Assembly (NCBI RefSeq): GCF_963921235.1
Contig: NC_086097.1
Coordinates: forward strand, 5,022,001-5,086,000
Origin: Mobula hypostoma
Lineage: Eukaryota
Direction: 5' to 3'
DNA length: 64,000 bases
Shown here: one piece after another, positions 39,015 through 63,575 of the stretch
Layout of the letters: the number at the start of each line of letters is the position of its first letter
How positions within the stretch are numbered: position 1 is the stretch's first letter
The notes under the pieces: generated by a model
Seen by the model: only the letters and a program-made list of their open reading frames with translations
What the model was told of the DNA's origin: nothing
Databases searched by the model: none
Program-made: the position numbers and the translations under genes

Positions 39015-42000
39015 TAGAAACATAGAAAATAGGAGCAGGAGTAGGCCATTCGGCCCTTCAAGCCTGCACCACCATTCAGTATGATCATGGCTGATTATCC
39101 AACTCAGAACCTTGCACCAGCCTTCCCTCCATACCCCCTGATCCCCGTAGCCACAAGGGCCATATCTAACTCCCTCTTAAATATAGCCAGTGAACTGGCC
39201 TCAACTGTTTCCTGTGGCAGAGAATTCCACAGATTCACCACTCTCTGTGTGAAGAAGTTTTTCCTAATCTCGGTCCTAAAAGGCTTCCCCTTTATCTTCA
39301 AACTGTGACCCCTCGTTCTGGACTTCCCCAACATGGGGAACAATCTTCCTGCATCCAGCCTGTCCAATCCCTTTAGGATTTTATACGTTTCAATCAGATC
39401 CCCCCTCAATCTTCTAAATTCCAACGAGTATAAGCCTAGTTGATCCAGTCTTTCATCATATGAAAGTCCTGCCATCTCAGGAATCAATCTGGTGAACCAT
39501 CTTTGTACTCCCTCTATGGCAAGGATGTCTGTCCTCAGATTAGGGGACCAAAACTGCATACAATACTCCAGGTGTGGTCTCATCAAGGCCTTGTACAACT
39601 GCAGTAGTACCTCCCTGCTCCTGTACTCGAACCCTCTTGCTATAAATGCCAGCATACCATTCGCCTTTTTCACCGCCTGCTGTACCTGCATGCCCACTTT
39701 CAATGACTGGTGTATAATGACACCCAGGTCTCGTTGCACCTCCCCTTTTCCTAATCGGCCACCATTCAGATAATGATCTGTTTTCCTGTTTTTGCCACCA
39801 AAGTAGATAACTTCACACTTATCCACATTAAATTGCATGTGCCATGAATTTGCCCACTCACCTAACCTATCCAAGTCACCCTACATCCTCTTAGCATCCT
39901 CCTCACTGCAAACACTGCCACCCAGCTTCGTGTCATCCGCAAACTTGGAGATGCTGCATTTAATTCCCTCATCCAAGTCATTAATATATATTGTAAACAA
40001 CTGGGGTCCCAGCACTGAGCCTTGCGGTACCCTACTAGTCACTGCCTGCCATTCTGAAAAGGTCCCATTTATTCCCACTCTTTGCTTCCTGTCTGCTAAC
40101 CAATTCTCCATCCACATCAATACCTTACCCCCAATACCGTGTGCTTTAAGTTTCTACACTAATTTCCTGTGTGGGACCTTGTCAAAAGCCTTTTGAAAAT
40201 CCAAATATACCACATCCACTGTTCTCCCCTATCCACTCTACTAGTTACATCCTCAAAAAATTCTATGAGATTCGTCAGACATGATTTTCCTTTCACAAAT
40301 CCATGCTGACTTTGTCCGATGATATCACCGCTTTCCAAATGTGCTGTTATCTCATCTTTGATAACTGACTCTAGCAGTGTCCCCACCATCGATGTTAGGC
40401 TAACCGGTCTATAATTCCCTGGTTTCTCTCTCCCTCCTTTTTAAAAAAGTGGGGTTACATTAGCCACCTTCCAATCCTCAGGAACTAGTCTAGAATCTAA
40501 AGAGTTTTGAAAAATTATCACTAATGCATCCACTATTTCTTGGGCTACTTCCTTAAGCACTCTGGGATGCAGACCATCTGGGCCTAGGGATTTATCTGCC
40601 TTTAATCCCTTCAATTTATCTAACACCACTTCCCTACTAACATGTATTTCGCTCAGTTCCTCCATTCACTGGACCCTCTGTCCCCTACTATTTCCGGAAG
40701 ATTATTTATGTCCTCCTTAGTGATGACAGAACCAAAGTAATTATTCAGTTGGTCTGCCATGTCCTTGCTCCCCATAATCAATTCACCTGTTTCTGTCTGT
40801 AGGGGACCTACATTTGCCTTAACCAATCTTTTTCTTTTCACGTATCTATAAAGGTTTTTACAGTCAGTTTTTATGTTCCCTGCCAGTTTTCTCTCATAAT
40901 CTTTTTTCCCCTTCCTAATTAAGCCTTTTGACTCCTCTGCTGAACTCTGAATTTCTCCCAGTCCTCAGGTGAGCCACTTTTTCTGGCTAATTTGTATGCT
41001 TCTTCTTTGGAATTGATACTATCCCTAATTTCCCTTGTCAGCCACGGGTGCACTACCTTCCTTGATTTATTCTTTTGCCAAACTGGGATGAACAATTGTT
41101 GCAGTTCATCCATGCAACCTTTAAATGCTTGCCATTGCATATCCACCGTCAACCCTTTAAGTGTCATTTGCTAGTCTATCTTAGCTAGTTCATGTCTCAT
41201 ACCTTCAAAGTTACCCTTCTTTAAATTCAGAACCTTTGTTTCTGAATTAACTATGTCACTCTCCATCTTAATGAAGAATTCCACCATATTATTGTCACTC
41301 TTACCTAAGGGGCCTCTAACAACAAGATTGCTAATTAACCCTTCCTCATTGCTCAATACCCAGTCCAGAATAGTCTGCTCTCTAGTTGGTTCCTTGACAT
41401 GTTGGTTCAAAAAACCATCCCGCATACATTCCAAGAAATCCTCTTTCTCAGCACCCTTACCAATTTGGTTCACCCAATCTACATGTAGATTGAAGTCACC
41501 CATTATAACTGCTGTTCCTTTATTGCACACATTTCTAATTTCCTGTTTAATACCATCCCCGACCTCACTACTACTGTCAGGTGGCCTGTACACAACTCCC
41601 ACCAGCGTTTTCTGCCCCTTAGTGTTAAGTAGCTCTACCCATATCGATTCCACATATTCCCGGCTTATGTCTTTCCTTTCTATTGGGTTAATCTCCTCTC
41701 TAACCAGCAACGCCACCCCACCTCCTTTTCTTTCATGTCTATCCCTCCTGAATATTGAATATCCCTGAATGTTGAGCTCCCATCCTTGGTCACCCGGGAG
41801 CCATGTCTCTGTGATCCCAACTATATCATAATCATTAATAACAATCTGCACTTTCAATTCATCCACCTTGTTACAAATGCTCCTTGCATTGACACACAAA
41901 GCCTTCAGGAGCTTTTTTACAACTCTCTTAGCCCTTATACAATTATGTTGAAAAGTGGCCCTTTTTGTGCTTGCCCTGGATTTGTCGGCCTGCCACTTTT

Positions 42001-42222
42001 ACTTTTCTCCTTACTACTTTTTGCTTCTCCCCTCACTTTACACCCCTCTGTCTCTCTGCACTGGTTCCCATCCCCCTGTTGTGAACTAACCTCCTCTCAC
42101 CTAGCCTCTTTAATTTGATTCCCACCCCCCAACCATTCTAGTTTAAAGTCACCTCAGTAGCCCTCGCTAATCTCCCTGCCAGGATATTGGTCCCCCTAGG
42201 ATTCAAGTGTAATCCGTCCTTT
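39015..42222 (-). mobile_element. Long CR1 (family C): end of ORF1 plus complete but multiply disrupted ORF2
   Basis: DGLHLNPRG ORF1 end; APE 41171..41899; RT pieces 39104-40665; TAGAAACATAG tail. Confidence 0.96.
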
Positions 42223-42569
42223 TCACTATCATCACTCTGGAAAACTGAGAGTGACTTTGAGATTTCCATGTGGCAGACCGAATGCAGAAATGCTGAAGTT
42301 GTCAGTGCTGCCAGAGTCTGGATCCTTGCCAATGGGATCAAGGAAAATTATTTTCTTTAATAAAAAATTAAGCCATTTATGAATTAGTTCTAATGTAACA
42401 TACAGAAACACACTGTTGTAACAGATTAAATGAATATTTTGATGGTTTAATAAACTGTAATTATAGCTGAGCAAATGATCTTGCATCTCCTTTTATGTCT
42501 TGCCTGTTCAAGTGCCTGTTCAAATACCTCTTAAACCTAATTATTCTCTATTTGATTCCACCACTATCA

Positions 42570-43560: not shown

Positions 43561-43880
43561 CTTTACTCTTTATTCTCTACTCCATGGAAAAATAATGAAA
43601 AAATAATAAAAGATTCGAGATTGTTTATTGTTATTCCCATTACGCTAGTGTAAGGAGAATAAAATAATTTACTCCGGATTCGATGCAGCGCAAAAAACAC
43701 ACACAAAGGATAACGAACACAATAATTAAAAAAACACAAAAAATATAAATACGTACAATAGCTTATGTACATCGATTGATTATAGAAACATAGAAACATA
43801 GAAAATAGGTGCAGGAGTAGGCCATTCGGCCCTTCGAGCCTGCACCGCCATTTATTATGATCATGGCTGATCATCCCAAC

Positions 43881-46800
43881 TCAGAACCCCGCCCCAGCCT
43901 TCCCTCCATACCCCCTGACCCCCGTAGCCACAAGGGCCATATCTAACTCCCTCTTAAACATAGCCAATGAACTGGCCTCAACAGTTTGCTGTGGCAGAGA
44001 ATTCCACAGATTCACCACTCTCTGTGTGAAGAAGTTTTTCCTAATCTCGGTCCTAAAAGGCTTTCCCTCTATCCTCAAACTGTGACCCCTCGTTCTGGAC
44101 TTCCCCAACATCGGGAACAATCTTCCAGCATCTAGCCTGTCCAATCCCTTTAGGATCTTATACGTTTCAATCAGATTCCTCCTCAATCTTCTAAATTCCA
44201 ACGAGTACAAGCCCAGTTCATCCAGTCTTTCTTCATATGAAAGTCCTGCCATCCCAGGAATCAATCTGGTGAACCTTCTTTGTACTCCCTCTATGGCAAA
44301 GATGTCTTTCCTCAGATTAGGGGACCAAAACTGCACACAATACTCCAGGTGTGGTCTCACCAAGGCCTTGTACAACTGCAGTAGTACCTCCCTGCTCCTG
44401 TACTCAAATCCTCTCGCTATAAATGCCAGCATACCATTCGCCTTTTTCACCGCCTGCTGTACCTGCATGCCCACTTTCAATGACTGGTGTATAATGACAC
44501 CCAGGTCTCGTTGCACCTCCCCTTTTCCTAATCAGCCACCATTCAGATAATAATCTGTTTTCCTATTTTTGCCACCAAAGTGGATAACTTCACATTTATC
44601 CACATTAAATTGCATCTGCCATGAATTTGCCCACTCACCCAACCTATCCAAGTCACCCTGCATCCTGTTAGCATCCTCCTCACTGCTAACACTGCCACCC
44701 AGCTTCGTGTCATCCGCAAACTTGGAGATGCTGCATTTAATTCCCTCATCCAAGTCATTAATATATATTGTAAACAACTGGGGTCCCAGCACTGAGCCTT
44801 GCAGTACCCCACTAGTCACCGCCTGCCATTCTGAAAAGGTCCCGTTTATTCCCACTCTTTGCTTCCTGTCTGCTAACCAATTCTCCACCCACACCAATAC
44901 CTTACCCCCAATACCGTGTGCTTTAAGTTTGCACACTAATCTCCTGTGTGGGACCTTGTCAAAAGCCTTTTGAAAATCCAAATATACCACATCCACTGGT
45001 TCTCCCCTATCTACTCTACTAGTTACATCCTCAAAAAAATTCTATGAGATTCGTCAGACATGATTTTCCTTTCACAAATCCATGCTGACTTTGTCCAATC
45101 ATTTCACCGCTTTCCAAATGTGCTGTTATCACATCCTTGATAACTGACTCCAGCAGTTTCCCCACCACCGACGTTAGGCTAACCGGTCTATAATTCCCCG
45201 GTTTCTCTCTCCCTCCTTTTTTAAAAAGTGGGGTTACATTAGCCACCCTCCAATCCTCAGGAACTAGTCCAGAATCTAACAAGTTTTGAAAAATTATCAC
45301 TAATGCATCCACTATTTCTTGGGCTACTTCCTTAAGCACTCTAGGATGCAGACCATCTGGCCCTGGGGATTTATCTGCCTTCAATCCCTTCAATTTACCT
45401 AACACCACTTCCCTACTAACATGTATTTCACTCAGTTCCTCCATCTCACTGGACCCTCTGTCCATTACTATTTCTGGAAGATTATTTATGTCCTCCTTAG
45501 TGAAGACAGAACCAAAGTAATTATTCAATTGGTCTGCCATGTCCTTGCTCCCCATAATCAATTCACCTGTTTCTGTCTGCAGGGGACCTACATTTGTCTT
45601 TACCAGTCTTTTCCTTTTTACATATCTATAAAAGCTTTTACAGTCCGTTTTTATGTTCCCCGCCAGTTTTCTCTCATAATCTTTTTTCCCCTTCCTAATT
45701 AAGCCCTTTGTCCTCCTCTGCTGAACTCTGAATTTCTCCCAGTCCTCAGGTGAGCCACTTTCTCTGGCTAATTTGTATGCTACTTCTTTGGAATTGATAC
45801 TATCCCTAATTTCTCTTGTCAGCCACGGGTGCACTACCTTCCTTGATTTATTCTTTTGCCAAACTAGGATGAACAATTGTTGTAGTTCATCCATGCAACC
45901 TTTAAATGCTTGCCATTGCATATCCACCGTCAATCCTTTAAGTGTCATTTGCCAGTCTATCTTAGCTAATTCACGTCTCATACCTTCAAAGTTACCCCTC
46001 TTTAAGTTCAGAACCTTTGTTTCTGAATTAACTATGTCACTCTCCATATTAATGAAGAATTCCACCATATTATGGACACTCTTACCCAAGGGGCCTCTCA
46101 CGACAAGATCGTTAATTAACCCTTCCTCATTGCTCAAAACCCAGTCCAGAATAGCCTGCTCTCTGGTTGGTTCCTCGACATGTTGGTTCAAAAAACCATC
46201 CCGCATACATTCCAAGAAATCCTCTTCCTCAGCACCTCTACCAATTTGGTTCACCCAGTCTACATGTAGATTGAAGTCACCCATTATAACTGCTGTTCCT
46301 TTATTGCACACATTTCTAATTTCCTGTTTAATACCATCTCCGACCTCACTACTACTGTTAGGTGGCCTGTACACAACTCCCACCAGCGTCTTCTGCCCCT
46401 TAGTGTTACGCAGCTCTACCCATATCGATTCCACATCTTCCCGGCTTATGTCCTTCCTTTCTATTGCGTTAATCTCTTCTTTAACCAGCAACGCCACCCC
46501 ACCTCCCCTTCCTTCATGTCTATCCCTCCTGAATATTGAATATCCCTGAACGTTGAGCTCCCATCCCTGGTCACCCTGGAGCAATGTCTCTGTGATCCCA
46601 ACTATATCATAATCATTAATAACAATCTGCACTTTCAATTCATCCACCTTATTACGAATGCTCCTTGCATTGACACATAAAGCCTTCAGGCGCTCTTTTA
46701 CAACTCTCTTAGCCCTTATACAATTACGTTGAAAAGTGGCCCTTTTTAATGCTTGCCCTGGATTTGTTGGCCTGCCACTTTTACTTTTCTCCTTTGTACT

Positions 46801-46935
46801 TTTTGCTTCTACGCTCACTTTACACCCCTCTGTCTCTCTGCACTGGTTCCCATCCCCCTGTTGTGAACTAACCTCCTCACGCCTAGCCTCTTTAATTTGA
46901 TTCCCACCCCCCAACCATTCTAGTTTAAAGTCACC
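43881..46935 (-). pseudogene. CR1 ORF2 (APE endonuclease + reverse transcriptase) with two lesions
   Basis: NARS, GDFN, YRPVSLTS, QHGF, AFD, PQG-like, FADD; extra base in A-run at ~45033 (7 vs 6 in sister copy) and CGA>TGA at 44532-44534. Confidence 0.93.
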
Positions 46936-47155
46936 TCAGTAGCCCCCGCTAATCTCCCCGCCACATTATTGGTCCCCCTAGGATTCAAGTGTAACCCGTC
47001 CTTTTTGTACAGGTCACGCCTGCGCCAAAAGAGTTCCCAATGATCCAAAAACTTGAATCCCTGCCCCCTGCTCCAATCCCTCAGCCACACATTTATCCTC
47101 CACCTCATCGCATTCCTACTCTCACTGTCGCGTGGCACAGGCAGTAATCCCGAGA
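46920..47155 (-). pseudogene. CR1 ORF1 C-terminus, SGNH/GDSL esterase-like domain
   Basis: IISGLLP...FLDHW...DGLHLNPRG (DxxH motif). Confidence 0.85.
46923..46929 (-). promoter_or_regulatory. Candidate -1 ribosomal frameshift heptamer U_UUA_AAC (also 42141-42147)
   Basis: ORF1 frame ACT TTA AAC TAG; -1 frame TTT AAA CTA GAA TGG TTG is ORF2. Confidence 0.7.
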
Positions 47156-47159
47156 TAAT

Positions 47160-49440: not shown

Positions 49441-50845
49441 GTTACATTGCTCACCCCATCAATAATTTGTAGGGGTTGAGACCCAATGTACGGTTTGGGG
49501 TTGCGCGCAATCTCATCATGATTCTTGGTAATGCATCCACCCATGTCTTTCCTGTCTCAGCTATAGCTTTGGCTAACACATTCTTGCTTGTTTGGTTCAT
49601 CCTTTCTACCATCCCTGAACTCTGGGGGTGGTAGGGTACGTGGAACCATTGTTGAATCCCTAGCAGTTGGCATTTTTCCTTCATCACTTTCCCCGTGAAA
49701 TGTGCTCCCTGATCTGAATCCACCTGAACTGGGGTTCCCCACCTTGGGAGGATTTCCTGAACTAGGATCCATGCAGCAGTGCGGGCGGTGCAGTTACTTG
49801 TTGGGAAAGCCTCTACCCACCGAGTGAAGTGATCCATAATTACCAGACAGTAGCTTTTCCCCGTGCTTTTTGGCAGGGGCCCTGTGAAGTCTATCCGGAT
49901 GTTTTCCCAGGGTCCCCTCGGCCGAGGCTGATTTGCCAACTGTAGCTTTCTGCCCTGACCAGGGTTATGCTGGGCACAAATGATACAACCGTGGCAGATT
50001 TTCTCAACATCCCTACCCATCCCTGGCCACCACCAGTCCTGCCGGAGGGTTGTGATCATGCTCTGTCTTCCCTCATGCATCGCCCCATGATATAACTTCA
50101 GTAGTATCGGTCTAATACAGGGTGGGTCCACCGCGACTCTTTCCTCCCCGTATGTCCAGCACCCATCTGATCCCTCCTTTCCTCCTTTTCTCCTCCATTT
50201 TTCCTTCTCTTCTGCCTCTACCTCTTCATATAATTTTACTAAGCTGGCTTCTGTCGTTTCCTCCTGCACACTTGCAATTTCAATTGTCTCTTGTCCCCCT
50301 GCTGCCTTATTCGCAGTAATGTCTGCCCTCGGAGGAACTGGGAAAACTTTATGCTCTGGAGTGGCCGCAGTCTCTCTGAGTATCCCCTGGTGTTTTTGTT
50401 CCTTCACTATACCCTGAACAGTGGTCAGTGTGTCAGTCTGTATCGCGTCCTGCTTAGGGGGTTTATACAGACCCTCCTCTATTTTAACTGGGTTTATCTT
50501 TACTCGACCACAATCTTGCTTGTGTCTAGCCCATGTTGCTGGGAACTGCTGACAAGGTAACCCATAGACCCCATCCGGGCTCCAGTCTCTGGTGATCGGG
50601 GCAGCTGCGACTATGCTAGGCAGGTTGTGTATTCTGTTGGTTGTATGTTTTCACTGCCTCGACTCGTCCATATTATTTCTCCCTTTCCCGAATCTATAAC
50701 AGCTCCTGCTTCCCTTAGGATGTCTATTCCAAGGATTGTGCCCTCATTATTTGGACATACCCAGAAATACACTGGAAGCTGCACTCCCCCGATTTCTAGT
50801 ATTTGCTACTCGCTGCTTTCTGCTTTTACTGTTTTCCCTCCTACA
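49441..50845 (-). pseudogene. pol: Inverted retrovirus-like pol fragment: protease C-half, RT N-terminus, in-frame deletion, RNase H end, integrase HHCC+DDE
   Basis: VGG...TILGIDIL; WARHKQDCG...QGILRE...VFPV; HGAMH...CIIC; IDFTG, DSDQG, YHPQSSGMVER. Confidence 0.9.
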
Positions 50846-61664: not shown

Positions 61665-63225
61665 TCATCCTCAGCAACCACTGAGGTCAGGCTAACTGGT
61701 CTATAATTTCCTGTCTGCTGCCTCCTTCCTTTTCTTCAAAAGTGGAGTGACATTTGCAATTTTCCAGTCCTCCAGAACCATGCCAGAGTCCAATGATTCT
61801 TGAAAGACTATTACTATGACTATGACACCAACAGAATCAACAAACTCATTCGTAAGGCCAGTGATGTTGTGGGGATGGAACTGGACTCTCTGACGGTGGT
61901 GTCTGAAAAGAGGATGCTGTCCAAGTTGCATGCCATCTTGGACAATGTCTCCCATCCACTACATAATGTACTGGTTGGGCACAGGAGTACATTCAGCCAG
62001 AGACTCATTCCACCGAGATGCAACACTGAGCGTCATAGGAAGTCATTCCTGCCTGTGGCCATCAAACTTTACAACTCCTCCCTTGGAGGGTCAGACACCC
62101 TGAGCCAATAGGCTGGTCCTGGATTTTTTTCATAATTTACTGGCATAATTTACATATTACTATTTAACTATTTATGGTTCTATTACTATTTATTATTTAG
62201 GGTGCAACTGTAACGAAAACCAATTTCCTCTGGGATCAATAAAGTATGACTATGACTATGACTATGACTACTAATGCCTCCATAATCTCTACTGTTACCT
62301 TTTTTCAGAACCCAATGGTACAGTTCATCTGGTCCGTGTGATTTATGTAAATTTAGGTCTTTCAGCTTTTTGAGCCTCTTCTCCCTTGTAAAAGTAACTC
62401 CACCCCTTTCTTCCCTTGCATCCTTCAACATCTGGCACACTGCTAGAGTTTTCCACAGTGAAGACTGATGCAAAATACTCATTAATTCATCTGCCATCTC
62501 CTTGTCCCCCATTGTCATTTCTCTGGCCTAATTTTCAAGCTGTCCTATATCCACTCTCATCTCTCTTTTATTTTTATATGCTTGATATTGTTTGTGAGCT
62601 TGCTTTTGTATTTCATCTTTTACCACTTAATAATTATTTTAGTTGCTTTCTATAGGTTTTTAAAGCCTTCCCAATCCTCCATCTTTCAGCTAATTTTTGC
62701 TTTGTTGTGTAATTTCTTTTTTGCTTTTACATTAGCTTTTAATTCCCTTGTCAGCCACGCTTGGATTGTTTTGCTATTTGAGTATTTCTTTGTTTTTGGA
62801 ATATATCTATCCTGCATCTTCCTCATTTTTCCCAGAAACTCAAGCCATTGCTGCTCTGCTGTCATCTCTGCCAGTATCTCCTTCCAATTTACTTTGGCCA
62901 GCTCCTTTCTCACAGCACTGTAATTTTTTTTACTGCTCTGAGATACTGCTACATCAGATTTTACTTCCTCCCTATAAAACTTCAAGTTGATCTCAATGAT
63001 ATTGTGACCACTGCCTCCTAAGGATTCCTCTACCTTAAACTCTCTAATCACCTCCAGTTCATTACATAATGTCCAATCCAGTGTAGCTGATCCCCTCGTA
63101 GGTTCAAGAACAAACTGCTCAGAAAAGCCATTTTGTAGACATTCAACAAATTCACTCTCTTAAGATCCATTACCAAGCTGATTTTTCCAATCTACGTGCC
63201 TGTTATAATCTCCCATGATGATCAT
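61665..63225 (-). mobile_element. Old CR1 ORF2 fragment (APE end to pre-RT) split by a Rex1 insertion
   Basis: ORFs 62686..63051 and 62186..62518; EDWKIANVTP. Confidence 0.85.
61815..62270 (+). mobile_element. Young Rex1 3' fragment, near-identical to 57901-58340
   Basis: ORF 61800..62111 matches C-terminus of 58049..58864; AATAAAGT(ATGACT)4 tail. Confidence 0.93.
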
Positions 63226-63227
63226 AG

Positions 63228-63575
63228 CAAAGAGGGAATAAAGGGAGCCTTTTCTGGGTAGATATTTGTGCCTAGTGGTGTTCCACAGGGGTCTGTGTTA
63301 GGACTGCTTCATTTTACGTTATATGTCAATGATTTGGATGACGGACTTGATGGCTTTGTTGCAAAGTTTGCAGATGATATGAAAATAGGTGGAGAGACAG
63401 GTAGTTTTCAGTAAGTAGAGAGGCTACAGAAGGTCTTAGATTAGGAGAATGGGCAAAGAAGTGGCAGGTTGAACACAGTGTTGGGAAGTGTATGGTTATG
63501 CACATTGGTAGAAGAAATAAACGGTAGATTATTTTCTAAATGAAGAGAAAATACAAAAAACTGAGATGCAAAGAC
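63228..63575 (+). mobile_element. Old CR1 RT fragment
   Basis: SGVPQGSVLG, KFADDMKIGG. Confidence 0.85.

Follow-up and report, generated by a model that had tools for sequence, protein, structure and literature searches.

It has long been an open question how the second open reading frame (ORF2) of a long interspersed element (LINE) is translated from a bicistronic RNA, and the question is posed anew by a CR1-type LINE in the genome of the ray Mobula hypostoma, whose ORF2 lies in the -1 frame relative to ORF1 and lacks an AUG ahead of its endonuclease. The window analysed here is a stretch of 64,000 nucleotides (nt) of contig NC_086097.1 (positions 5,022,001 to 5,086,000), located in the 3.48-Gb assembly GCF_963921235.1. 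On its minus strand it holds a copy of this element (copy 1) in which ORF1 ends on the heptamer U_UUA_AAC, followed directly by a stop codon. In the accessible portions of PMC3708506, PMC3894237 and PMC2881922, the translation of LINE ORF2 is called 'not clear', and reinitiation (in L1 and SART1), entry of the internal ribosome entry site (IRES) type and 2A peptides are discussed, with no frameshifting. Based on the sequence comparisons presented below, we consider that the CR1 junction is probably a programmed -1 frameshift site giving an ORF1-ORF2 fusion.

A preliminary description of the window had ORF1 ending in ACT TTA AAC TAG with the heptamer in phase, joined to an AUG-less -1 frame for the apurinic/apyrimidinic endonuclease (APE) and reverse transcriptase (RT) that opens at 46935. 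The minus-strand sequence and the frame and domain analyses bear out both points. Across the junction the minus strand reads ...GGG GCT ACT GAG GTG ACT TTA AAC TAG AAT GGT TGG GGG GTG GGA ATC..., with T_TTA_AAC (46929..46923) in ORF1 phase as X_XXY_YYZ. The -1 frame opens after a TGA at 46938..46936, two codons upstream of the heptamer, reads GGT GAC TTT AAA CTA GAA TGG TTG GGG, and stays open for 634 codons (45031..46935). A domain search found Exo_endo_phos and the start of RVT_1 encoded in this frame; the matches of ORF2 to Exo_endo_phos (E = 1.4e-9) and Exo_endo_phos_2 (E = 1.1e-7) both lie above the cut-offs, and RVT_1 scored E = 1e-21 on 44535..45041. As previously described, the first methionine of ORF2 is deep in the endonuclease (the M of VIMGDFN), with no AUG ahead of that domain, and the ATG at 46918 is out of frame, lying in the +1 frame and running into a stop after 8 codons (ATG GTT GGG GGG TGG GAA TCA AAT TAA). 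No stop/restart overlap of the UAAUG or AUGA kind is present at this junction, where the sequence is AAC UAG AAU GG and the AUG falls in the +1 frame. The same junction, GACTTTAAACTAGAATGGTTGGGGGGTGGG, occurs in a second window copy of the family at about 42118..42147.

Copy 1 is a dead element, because it is 5'-truncated at 47156 and its ORF2 frame is broken near 45041 and 44531. Its junction is the state of a young, very abundant CR1-type family (lineage A), not a mutation of the window copy. A family search with a 361-nt junction query yielded at least 1038 candidate copies, and all 40 that were scored were 98-100% identical. Among 30 near-identical copies, which are uninformative on selection, the heptamer was intact in all 30, the 13-mer GACTTTAAACTAG was present in 28, the -1 frame opened just one codon upstream of GAC in all 30, and ORF2 ran without a stop as far as the locus extended (560-561 codons) in 20. 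The full-length ORF1 of lineage A comprises 311 codons from the first Met, and the entire 338-codon open frame was found in 5 of the 30 loci. The 311-amino-acid (aa) ORF1 product of a full-length relative (L002) matched Lipase_GDSL_2 with E = 1.7e-15 and 58.4 bits (cut-off 32.9), and the closest solved relative of ORF1 is the ZfL2-1 ORF1 esterase structure 4c1b (E = 1.4e-28). A Pfam search gave 29,326 candidate esterase stretches in the genome. Membership in the CR1 group is suggested by the ORF1 relatives, the nearest named ones being those of rays, sharks, coelacanth, frogs, turtles, squamates and birds. Within the 311-codon ORF1 of the full-length relative, the terminal heptamer is the sole in-phase X_XXY_YYZ (Y = A or T).

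The evidence that bears most directly on the function of the junction comes from a comparison of 15 junctions drawn from ray lineages A, B, C, D1 and D2 and from three avian-type loci. These were chosen by ORF1 protein similarity and not by the heptamer, and ORF1 identity between the deepest of the compared lineages is 34-39%, with 34-36% between lineage A and the avian-type loci. The earlier proposal of frameshifting hinged on whether the heptamer is conserved and phased across CR1 lineages, and this proved to be the case, with TTTAAAC in ORF1 phase in 15/15 junctions. The codon before TTA is ACT, AGT, GCT, GTT, GAT, GGT or TCT (seven codons for six amino acids, T-ending throughout), and the Leu codon TTA and the Asn codon AAC are used in 15/15. 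As background, T occupies 21% of third positions in ray ORF1, and TTA accounts for 5/28 Leu codons there and for 1/14 in the avian-type locus L098. A wobble T that stays constant under a changing amino acid, together with fixed TTA and AAC, is predicted by a slippery heptamer and is not predicted by selection on the ORF1 protein. A stop codon (TAG, TAA or TGA) directly follows the heptamer in 14/15 junctions, the exception being GAG in L105 of lineage D2. If TTT is taken as codon 1 of the -1 frame, GGG occupies codon 7 in 15/15 and GGG or GGT occupies codon 9 in 15/15; the distance from the heptamer to this G-rich box is free of indels in 15/15, and codons 4-6 and 8 are free to vary. The adjacent stop and the G-rich run, which had been put forward as candidate stimulators, are hence both conserved elements of the junction. 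An in-frame AUG near the junction and ahead of the APE domain is not conserved, in keeping with the AUG-less ORF2 proposed for the family: it occurs in 3/15 junctions (L104, L097 and L099, in the last two at -1 codon 5, two codons past the stop) and in none from lineages A, B, C and D2 or from L098. The anatomy of the junction, its phase and the conservation at its synonymous sites extend from the rays to the avian-type lineages.

The three avian-type loci (L097-L099) come from metagenome-type contigs, which were scanned for protein patterns with ORF1 proteins of rays and sharks as queries. ORF1 of L097 and L098 is 34-36% identical to the query over long matches, and L099 matches over its last 58 residues alone, at 45%; the nearest named relative of all three is a hummingbird protein (51-66%), hence the label. 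Their junctions read AGG TCT TTA AAC TAG ACATGAGGGGGGAAGGGGAT and AGG GCT TTA AAC TAG GTTCGAAGGGGGAAGGGGAC, and the open -1 frame of ORF2 extends over 94 aa in L097 (where the contig ends), 438 aa in L098 and 111 aa in L099. In the ray-versus-avian alignment, the sole invariant island consists of TTTAAACTAG and the G-rich box, with the flanks otherwise diverged. Scans of viral contigs yielded no further junction loci, and a hit from a genome-contig scan (L100) was rejected as a bacterial chance match. Separately, ray and avian-type elements retain at the nucleotide level a purine-rich stretch, AGGGGGA or, in lineage B, AGAGGGA, that lies some 50 nt ahead of the ORF1 stop. It was noted with regard to an upstream element complementary to 18S rRNA (TURBS), as expected under termination-reinitiation; the conserved Arg-Gly in the last esterase block is specified by the same stretch, and RNA-level and protein-level constraint on it are inseparable.

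Within the ray genome, lineage B is represented by L052, L055 and L075 and by 20 junction pieces (L077-L096), which gave 22 scored junctions, L091 being without an anchor. Lineages A and B share about 85% nt identity over the whole of ORF1 and up to 30-60 nt past the heptamer. ORF2 of lineage B shows about 50% DNA identity and 35-42% (about 39%) protein identity to that of lineage A, and it is still in the -1 frame. Since ORF1 and the junction are shared by A and B while their ORF2s are strongly diverged, the ORF1 module, including the junction, has evidently been exchanged between different ORF2s, as judged from these alignments. The majority junction of lineage B is GAG AGT TTA AAC TAG AATTGTTGGGGGGTGGGAAC. 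Its ORF2 is open in the -1 frame from 25 nt upstream in 13/22 copies, and the others are decayed, for example by a change of CGA to TGA. A TGA that lies 12 codons into the -1 frame of L052 and L055 was considered as a refutation of the frameshift and rejected, CGA being the majority codon in 20 further copies. This TGA closes the frame in five copies and is best read as CpG decay, because the other lineage B copies have CGA. In one lineage B copy, L075, the G runs are expanded (L075:2976-3030, GGGAGGGGTGGGGGGGCGGG) and are predicted to form a three-layer G-quadruplex (-50.4 versus -16.6 kcal/mol); in this copy ORF1 and ORF2 share one frame, with ORF2 following the TAG.

Lineages C and D were recovered by a genome search with the ray ORF1 protein P0059, which is 39% identical to lineage A ORF1, and were read as pieces of 45-65 nt in which the continuity of ORF2 covers about 30 nt. 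The junction is AGG GCT/GTT TTA AAC TAA/TGA in lineage C (L101-L103), GAA GAT TTA AAC TAA in lineage D1 (L104) and GAG GGT TTA AAC TAA in lineage D2 (L105-L108; GAG instead of the stop in one copy). The short C, D1 and D2 pieces are open in the -1 frame and closed in the +1 frame. In L104 the junction AAC TAA TG forms a UAAUG stop-start overlap with its ATG in the ORF2 frame; the sister lineage D2 has ATT at this place.

Contigs from four other organisms were also compared with 46700..47100 at an identity of at least 80%. Among the matches listed, the stretch 46933..46966 holds 11 positions that differ from the window, two more are 46893 and 46896, and a single, minor G>A (at 46923) falls within 46897..46932, the region made up of the G box, spacer, stop and heptamer. 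Such a pattern may be taken as supportive only. The contigs diverge from the window at 46860/46861 and 46898, which fits the module switch between lineages A and B.

At the protein level, ORF1 relatives were gathered by a word-index search and by a profile search of 1.84 billion representatives (best 150 of 16,200 hits, E <= 0.001). This gave 256 proteins, of which 185 had the last esterase block 18-75 residues from the end and were scored; the named relatives come from rays, skates, sharks, sawfish, coelacanth, frogs, turtles, squamates, alligator and birds. The largest class (119/185) ends in x-Leu-Asn, with x being A, G, T, Y, S, C, D, F, H, N, I or V in 117 proteins and Glu in 2; the residue before Leu-Asn can therefore be encoded by NNU in 117/119, and in some cases is one with NNY codons only, although it is mostly small, which protein structure could also favour. 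The first 80 proteins of this class fall into 12 clusters at 60% identity. A further 11 proteins end in x-Gly-Asn, preceded by Gln (9, fitting CAG), Ser (1) or Ala (1), all NNG-encodable, and 3 end in x-Lys-Asn, preceded by Ser (2) or Ala (1). In 10 proteins an internal x-Lys-Asn, preceded by Ser, Thr, Arg or Ala, stands at the same offset and is followed by 3-13 more residues; the residues before all 13 x-Lys-Asn (S, T, R, A) are NNA-encodable. Internal Leu-Asn was found in 3 proteins and other endings in 39. Leu, Gly and Lys are chemically unrelated, and they would correspond to the P-site set of U_UUA_AAC, G_GGA_AAC and A_AAA_AAC, the last two heptamers being deduced from protein. No close relative of the Gly-Asn class was found in the M. 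hypostoma genome, the best match being 39%.

Several of these database entries are unusual in their own right, and four CR1 ORF1 esterases carry source names that look wrong. P0020 is labelled Pseudomonas aeruginosa and sits on a 4.2-kb contig at 60% identity to ray ORF1; contamination by host DNA is the probable cause. The name given to P0027 is '40S ribosomal protein S24 isoform X2'; P0064 and P0065 are named as isoforms of 'transmembrane protein 204' and are probably transposon exons in gene models. In P0037, a 425-aa stingray protein model, the ORF1 end ...LN runs directly into the APE-like sequence RERRNGLIILYLNARSVRNKADEL, which reflects either one copy with ORF1 and ORF2 joined in frame or a gene-model artefact.

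Based on these data, we propose a probable mechanism by which ORF2 would be reached. Most ribosomes on the esterase-type ORF1 would terminate at the stop directly after U_UUA_AAC. A minority would slip back by one base, re-pairing from UUA to UUU in the P site and from AAC to AAA in the A site; alternatively, the tRNA-Asn might slip in the P site while the stop waits in the A site. These ribosomes would go on reading in the -1 frame, over CUA GAA UGG..., and so reach the APE/RT frame with its missing AUG, yielding a fusion (...Thr-Leu-Asn-Leu-Glu-Trp-Leu-Gly-Gly-Gly-Asn...) at a low, fixed ratio to the ORF1 protein (ORF1p), in the manner of gag-pol. The cassette would consist of N_NNA_AAC, the adjacent stop, a variable spacer of fixed length and the conserved G-rich box about 10 nt downstream. 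Three properties of such a cassette are present at the junction, namely an in-phase heptamer, a downstream -1 ORF that is open across the site without a conserved start, and conservation at synonymous sites. The frameshift first suggested from the window alone thus gains support from comparative conservation; the slippage, the resulting fusion protein and a stimulatory part played by the stop or the G box are deduced from this pattern.

A number of observations weigh against this mechanism. A stop adjacent to the heptamer is equally required by termination-coupled reinitiation, the UAAUG overlap of L104 is like that of SART1, and two avian-type loci carry an AUG at -1 codon 5. RNA structure gives little help: single-sequence folds of the downstream region in five lineages had z-scores of -0.74 to +0.76, not above shuffled controls, and the consensus fold (-1.26 kcal/mol) contained no supported helix. 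No pseudoknot or stem-loop was found 5-9 nt downstream with folding tools that do not model pseudoknots. RNA structure was rejected as the stimulator on the fold signal. Only lineage A (two layers) and the variant copy L075 (three layers) have a predicted G-quadruplex; as lineage B and the avian type lack such a prediction, it was likewise rejected as a general stimulator. The usual spacer from heptamer to stimulator is 5-9 nt, and the G box starts 9-11 nt past the heptamer, beyond that range. On the protein side, the Gly-Asn and Lys-Asn classes are drawn from protein sequence alone, and because the members of each class share ancestry, independent events are far fewer than these counts. Finally, a fusion is not obligatory for every esterase-type LINE, because the ORF1p of L2 has been reported to be dispensable (PMC3880073).

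Part of this evidence would be accommodated by termination-dependent reinitiation or unconventional initiation, in which a fraction of 40S subunits restarts nearby in the -1 frame, at an AUG or a non-AUG codon, and ORF2p is made as a separate protein, as has been reported for human L1 and for SART1 (there at UAAUG). The conserved stop position and the G box would then form a restart signal. We regard this main rival as unlikely, though it deserves serious consideration. It would account for the stop position conserved in 14/15 junctions, for the UAAUG of L104 and the AUG two codons past the stop in L097 and L099, and for the fact that RNA structure of the frameshift type is not predicted. However, it leaves unexplained why the wobble U before UUA is kept across seven codons, why UUA for Leu and AAC for Asn are constant, and why Leu is replaced by Gly or Lys alone, with matching preceding residues. 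There is also no conserved restart codon, an AUG occurring in 3/15 junctions and near-cognates being lineage-specific, and in the 10 proteins with internal Lys-Asn, ORF1 continues for 3-13 codons past the motif, which sets the stop apart from it. Moreover, the G box lies downstream of the stop, whereas the known reinitiation signals of caliciviruses sit upstream of it. Reinitiation nevertheless agrees with the dispensability reported for L2 ORF1p (PMC3880073), and in the accessible portions of PMC3708506, PMC3894237 and PMC2881922 it is the accepted model for LINE ORF2, with downstream structure helping SART1.

The same block of TTTAAAC, stop and G box might instead serve as another kind of nucleic-acid signal, either a site for RNA packaging or protein binding or a hotspot of recombination between ORF1 and ORF2, with ORF2 reached by internal entry or leaky scanning. 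The swapping of the ORF1 module with its junction between ORF2s, the break in homology 30-60 nt past the heptamer, the divergence of the cross-species contigs at 46860/46861 and 46898, and a G box without a predicted fold would all suit such a signal. Yet the block is always in ORF1 phase, and the deduced variants UUUAAAC, GGGAAAC and AAAAAAC would have slipperiness, not sequence, in common; leaky scanning past a 311-codon ORF1 with several AUGs is implausible, and ORF2 has no conserved AUG. We therefore judge this explanation improbable. That the heptamer is a functionless accident of a dead, truncated copy would fit the 5' truncation and the ORF2 frame breaks of copy 1, but the same junction is found in 30/30 sampled copies of a family with at least 1038 candidates and in lineages whose ORF1 is 34-39% identical, which makes chance or decay scarcely credible.

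The proposed frameshift is reminiscent of gag-pol in retroviruses and LTR retrotransposons and of its domesticated form in PEG10, in which an abundant upstream structural or accessory ORF is followed by a more rarely made enzymatic -1 ORF, with an X_XXY_YYZ joint and a fusion at a fixed, low ratio. The PEG10 heptamer is G_GGA_AAC. The A-site codon AAC is common to the CR1 site and PEG10, which is reviewed in the accessible portion of PMC5009743. In gag-pol systems, a downstream pseudoknot or stem-loop stands at 5-9 nt, whereas the CR1 G-rich box is at 9-11 nt and has no predicted structure, and CR1, as a LINE, has no protease to separate the fusion. The coronavirus ORF1a/1b site has the identical heptamer U_UUA_AAC in the same phase; there, a short spacer separates the heptamer from a three-stem or H-type pseudoknot and the 0-frame stop is set apart from the site, whereas the CR1 site has an adjacent stop and no predicted pseudoknot. 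In barley yellow dwarf virus (GGGUUUU UAG) and red clover necrotic mosaic virus (GGAUUUU UAG), the 0-frame stop abuts the heptamer and adjacent or long-range RNA structures are needed. These luteovirus and dianthovirus sites share the abutting stop with CR1, but their RNA structures have no predicted CR1 counterpart.

A closer parallel for the G box may be sought in protein-stimulated -1/-2 frameshifting. In arteriviruses, nsp1-beta and PCBP act at a C-rich motif that lies about 11 nt downstream, and cardiovirus 2A acts on a stem-loop 13-14 nt downstream. By analogy, the CR1 cassette could likewise use a conserved motif with little or no structure, spaced roughly 10 nt or more from the heptamer; the CR1 motif is G-rich, not C-rich, and the likeness is one of analogy. 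Among LINEs, L1 ORF2 reportedly does not need its AUG (Alisch 2006). CR1 shares with SART1 and L1 a bicistronic RNA in which, according to the accessible portions of PMC3708506 and PMC2881922, the translation of ORF2 depends on that of ORF1, and with SART1 it shares an ORF2 in the -1 frame. Unlike CR1, these elements have no conserved slippery heptamer, and UAAUG is found in L104 alone among the CR1 lineages.

Known, then, is -1 frameshifting of the gag-pol type; new would be its use in a LINE, apparently without a structured stimulator. The accessible portion of the recoding review PMC5009743 names no LINE ORF1/ORF2 frameshift, its non-LTR matches being HeT-A gag and a TART passage only. Frameshifting, overlap and slippery sequences all go unmentioned in a CR1-group survey from 2026 (PMC13343379), an ORF1 survey (PMC4120745) or PMC3905857; in the accessible portions of PMC3894237 and PMC2881922, frameshifting is not mentioned and overlap appears in other contexts only, such as the stop-start codon of SART1. 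The full-text literature searched contained no proposal of -1 frameshifting between ORF1 and ORF2 of CR1 or other LINEs, and older CR1 or LINE papers beyond that search may mention an overlap or a frameshift. If correct, the mechanism would give the CR1 group a different answer to the question of second-ORF translation, namely gag-pol-style frameshifting and an ORF1-ORF2 fusion. The annotation of CR1 ORF2 would change, as there would be no start codon to find; cis-preference and the ORF1p:ORF2p stoichiometry of CR1 elements would be explained; and a frameshift signal without obvious RNA structure would be added to those known. Such a reading would cover the dominant LINEs of most non-mammalian vertebrates; in elasmobranchs, CR1-group elements make up 22-34% of the genome (PMC13343379). 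More speculatively, and with some doubt on our part, all CR1-group LINEs with an esterase ORF1 might make their endonuclease/RT as a fusion through an ancient, structure-free cassette (UUUAAAC, GGGAAAC or AAAAAAC by lineage) kept at least since the split of rays and birds. By analogy with cardiovirus 2A, the G box could be a docking site for ORF1p or for a host G-tract-binding protein, and the level of ORF1p could set the output of ORF2.

The features of the two CR1 copies in the window are collected in the table.

Table. Coordinates of CR1 features in the 64,000-nt window
Feature	Position	Strand	Remarks
Slippery heptamer U_UUA_AAC	46923..46929	-	Wobble U of ACU plus UUA AAC, the last two ORF1 sense codons
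ORF1 stop UAG	46920..46922	-	Immediately 3' of the heptamer
G-rich box GGUUGGGGGGUGGG	46900..46913	-	In the -1 frame (UUU = codon 1), codon 7 GGG and codon 9 GGG
ORF1 remnant	46920..47156	-	C-terminal ~79 codons of a 311-aa GDSL/SGNH esterase-type ORF1
ORF2, first open segment	45031..46935	-	N-terminal linker, APE endonuclease and start of RT; -1 frame relative to ORF1
Remaining ORF2	43881..45041	-	RT and C-terminal part, in two further frames
3' untranslated end of copy 1	43791..43880	-	Similarity to the second window copy stops at 43791
Second copy of the same family, 5'-truncated	39015..42223	-	94.9% identity to copy 1 over 3215 bases

Two further mobile-element remnants lie on the minus strand of the window. 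An interrupted fragment of another CR1/L2-like ORF2 (62186..63297) is 39% identical over 214 aa to ORF2 of lineage A, and its ORF1/ORF2 junction is absent from the window. About 2.3 kb upstream of the CR1 copy, a 399-codon frame (49451..50650) matches Integrase_H2C2, the zinc-binding domain of integrases (E = 8.8e-15), and rve, the integrase core (E = 1.2e-15), and is a fragment of a long terminal repeat (LTR) retrotransposon or of a retrovirus-like element.

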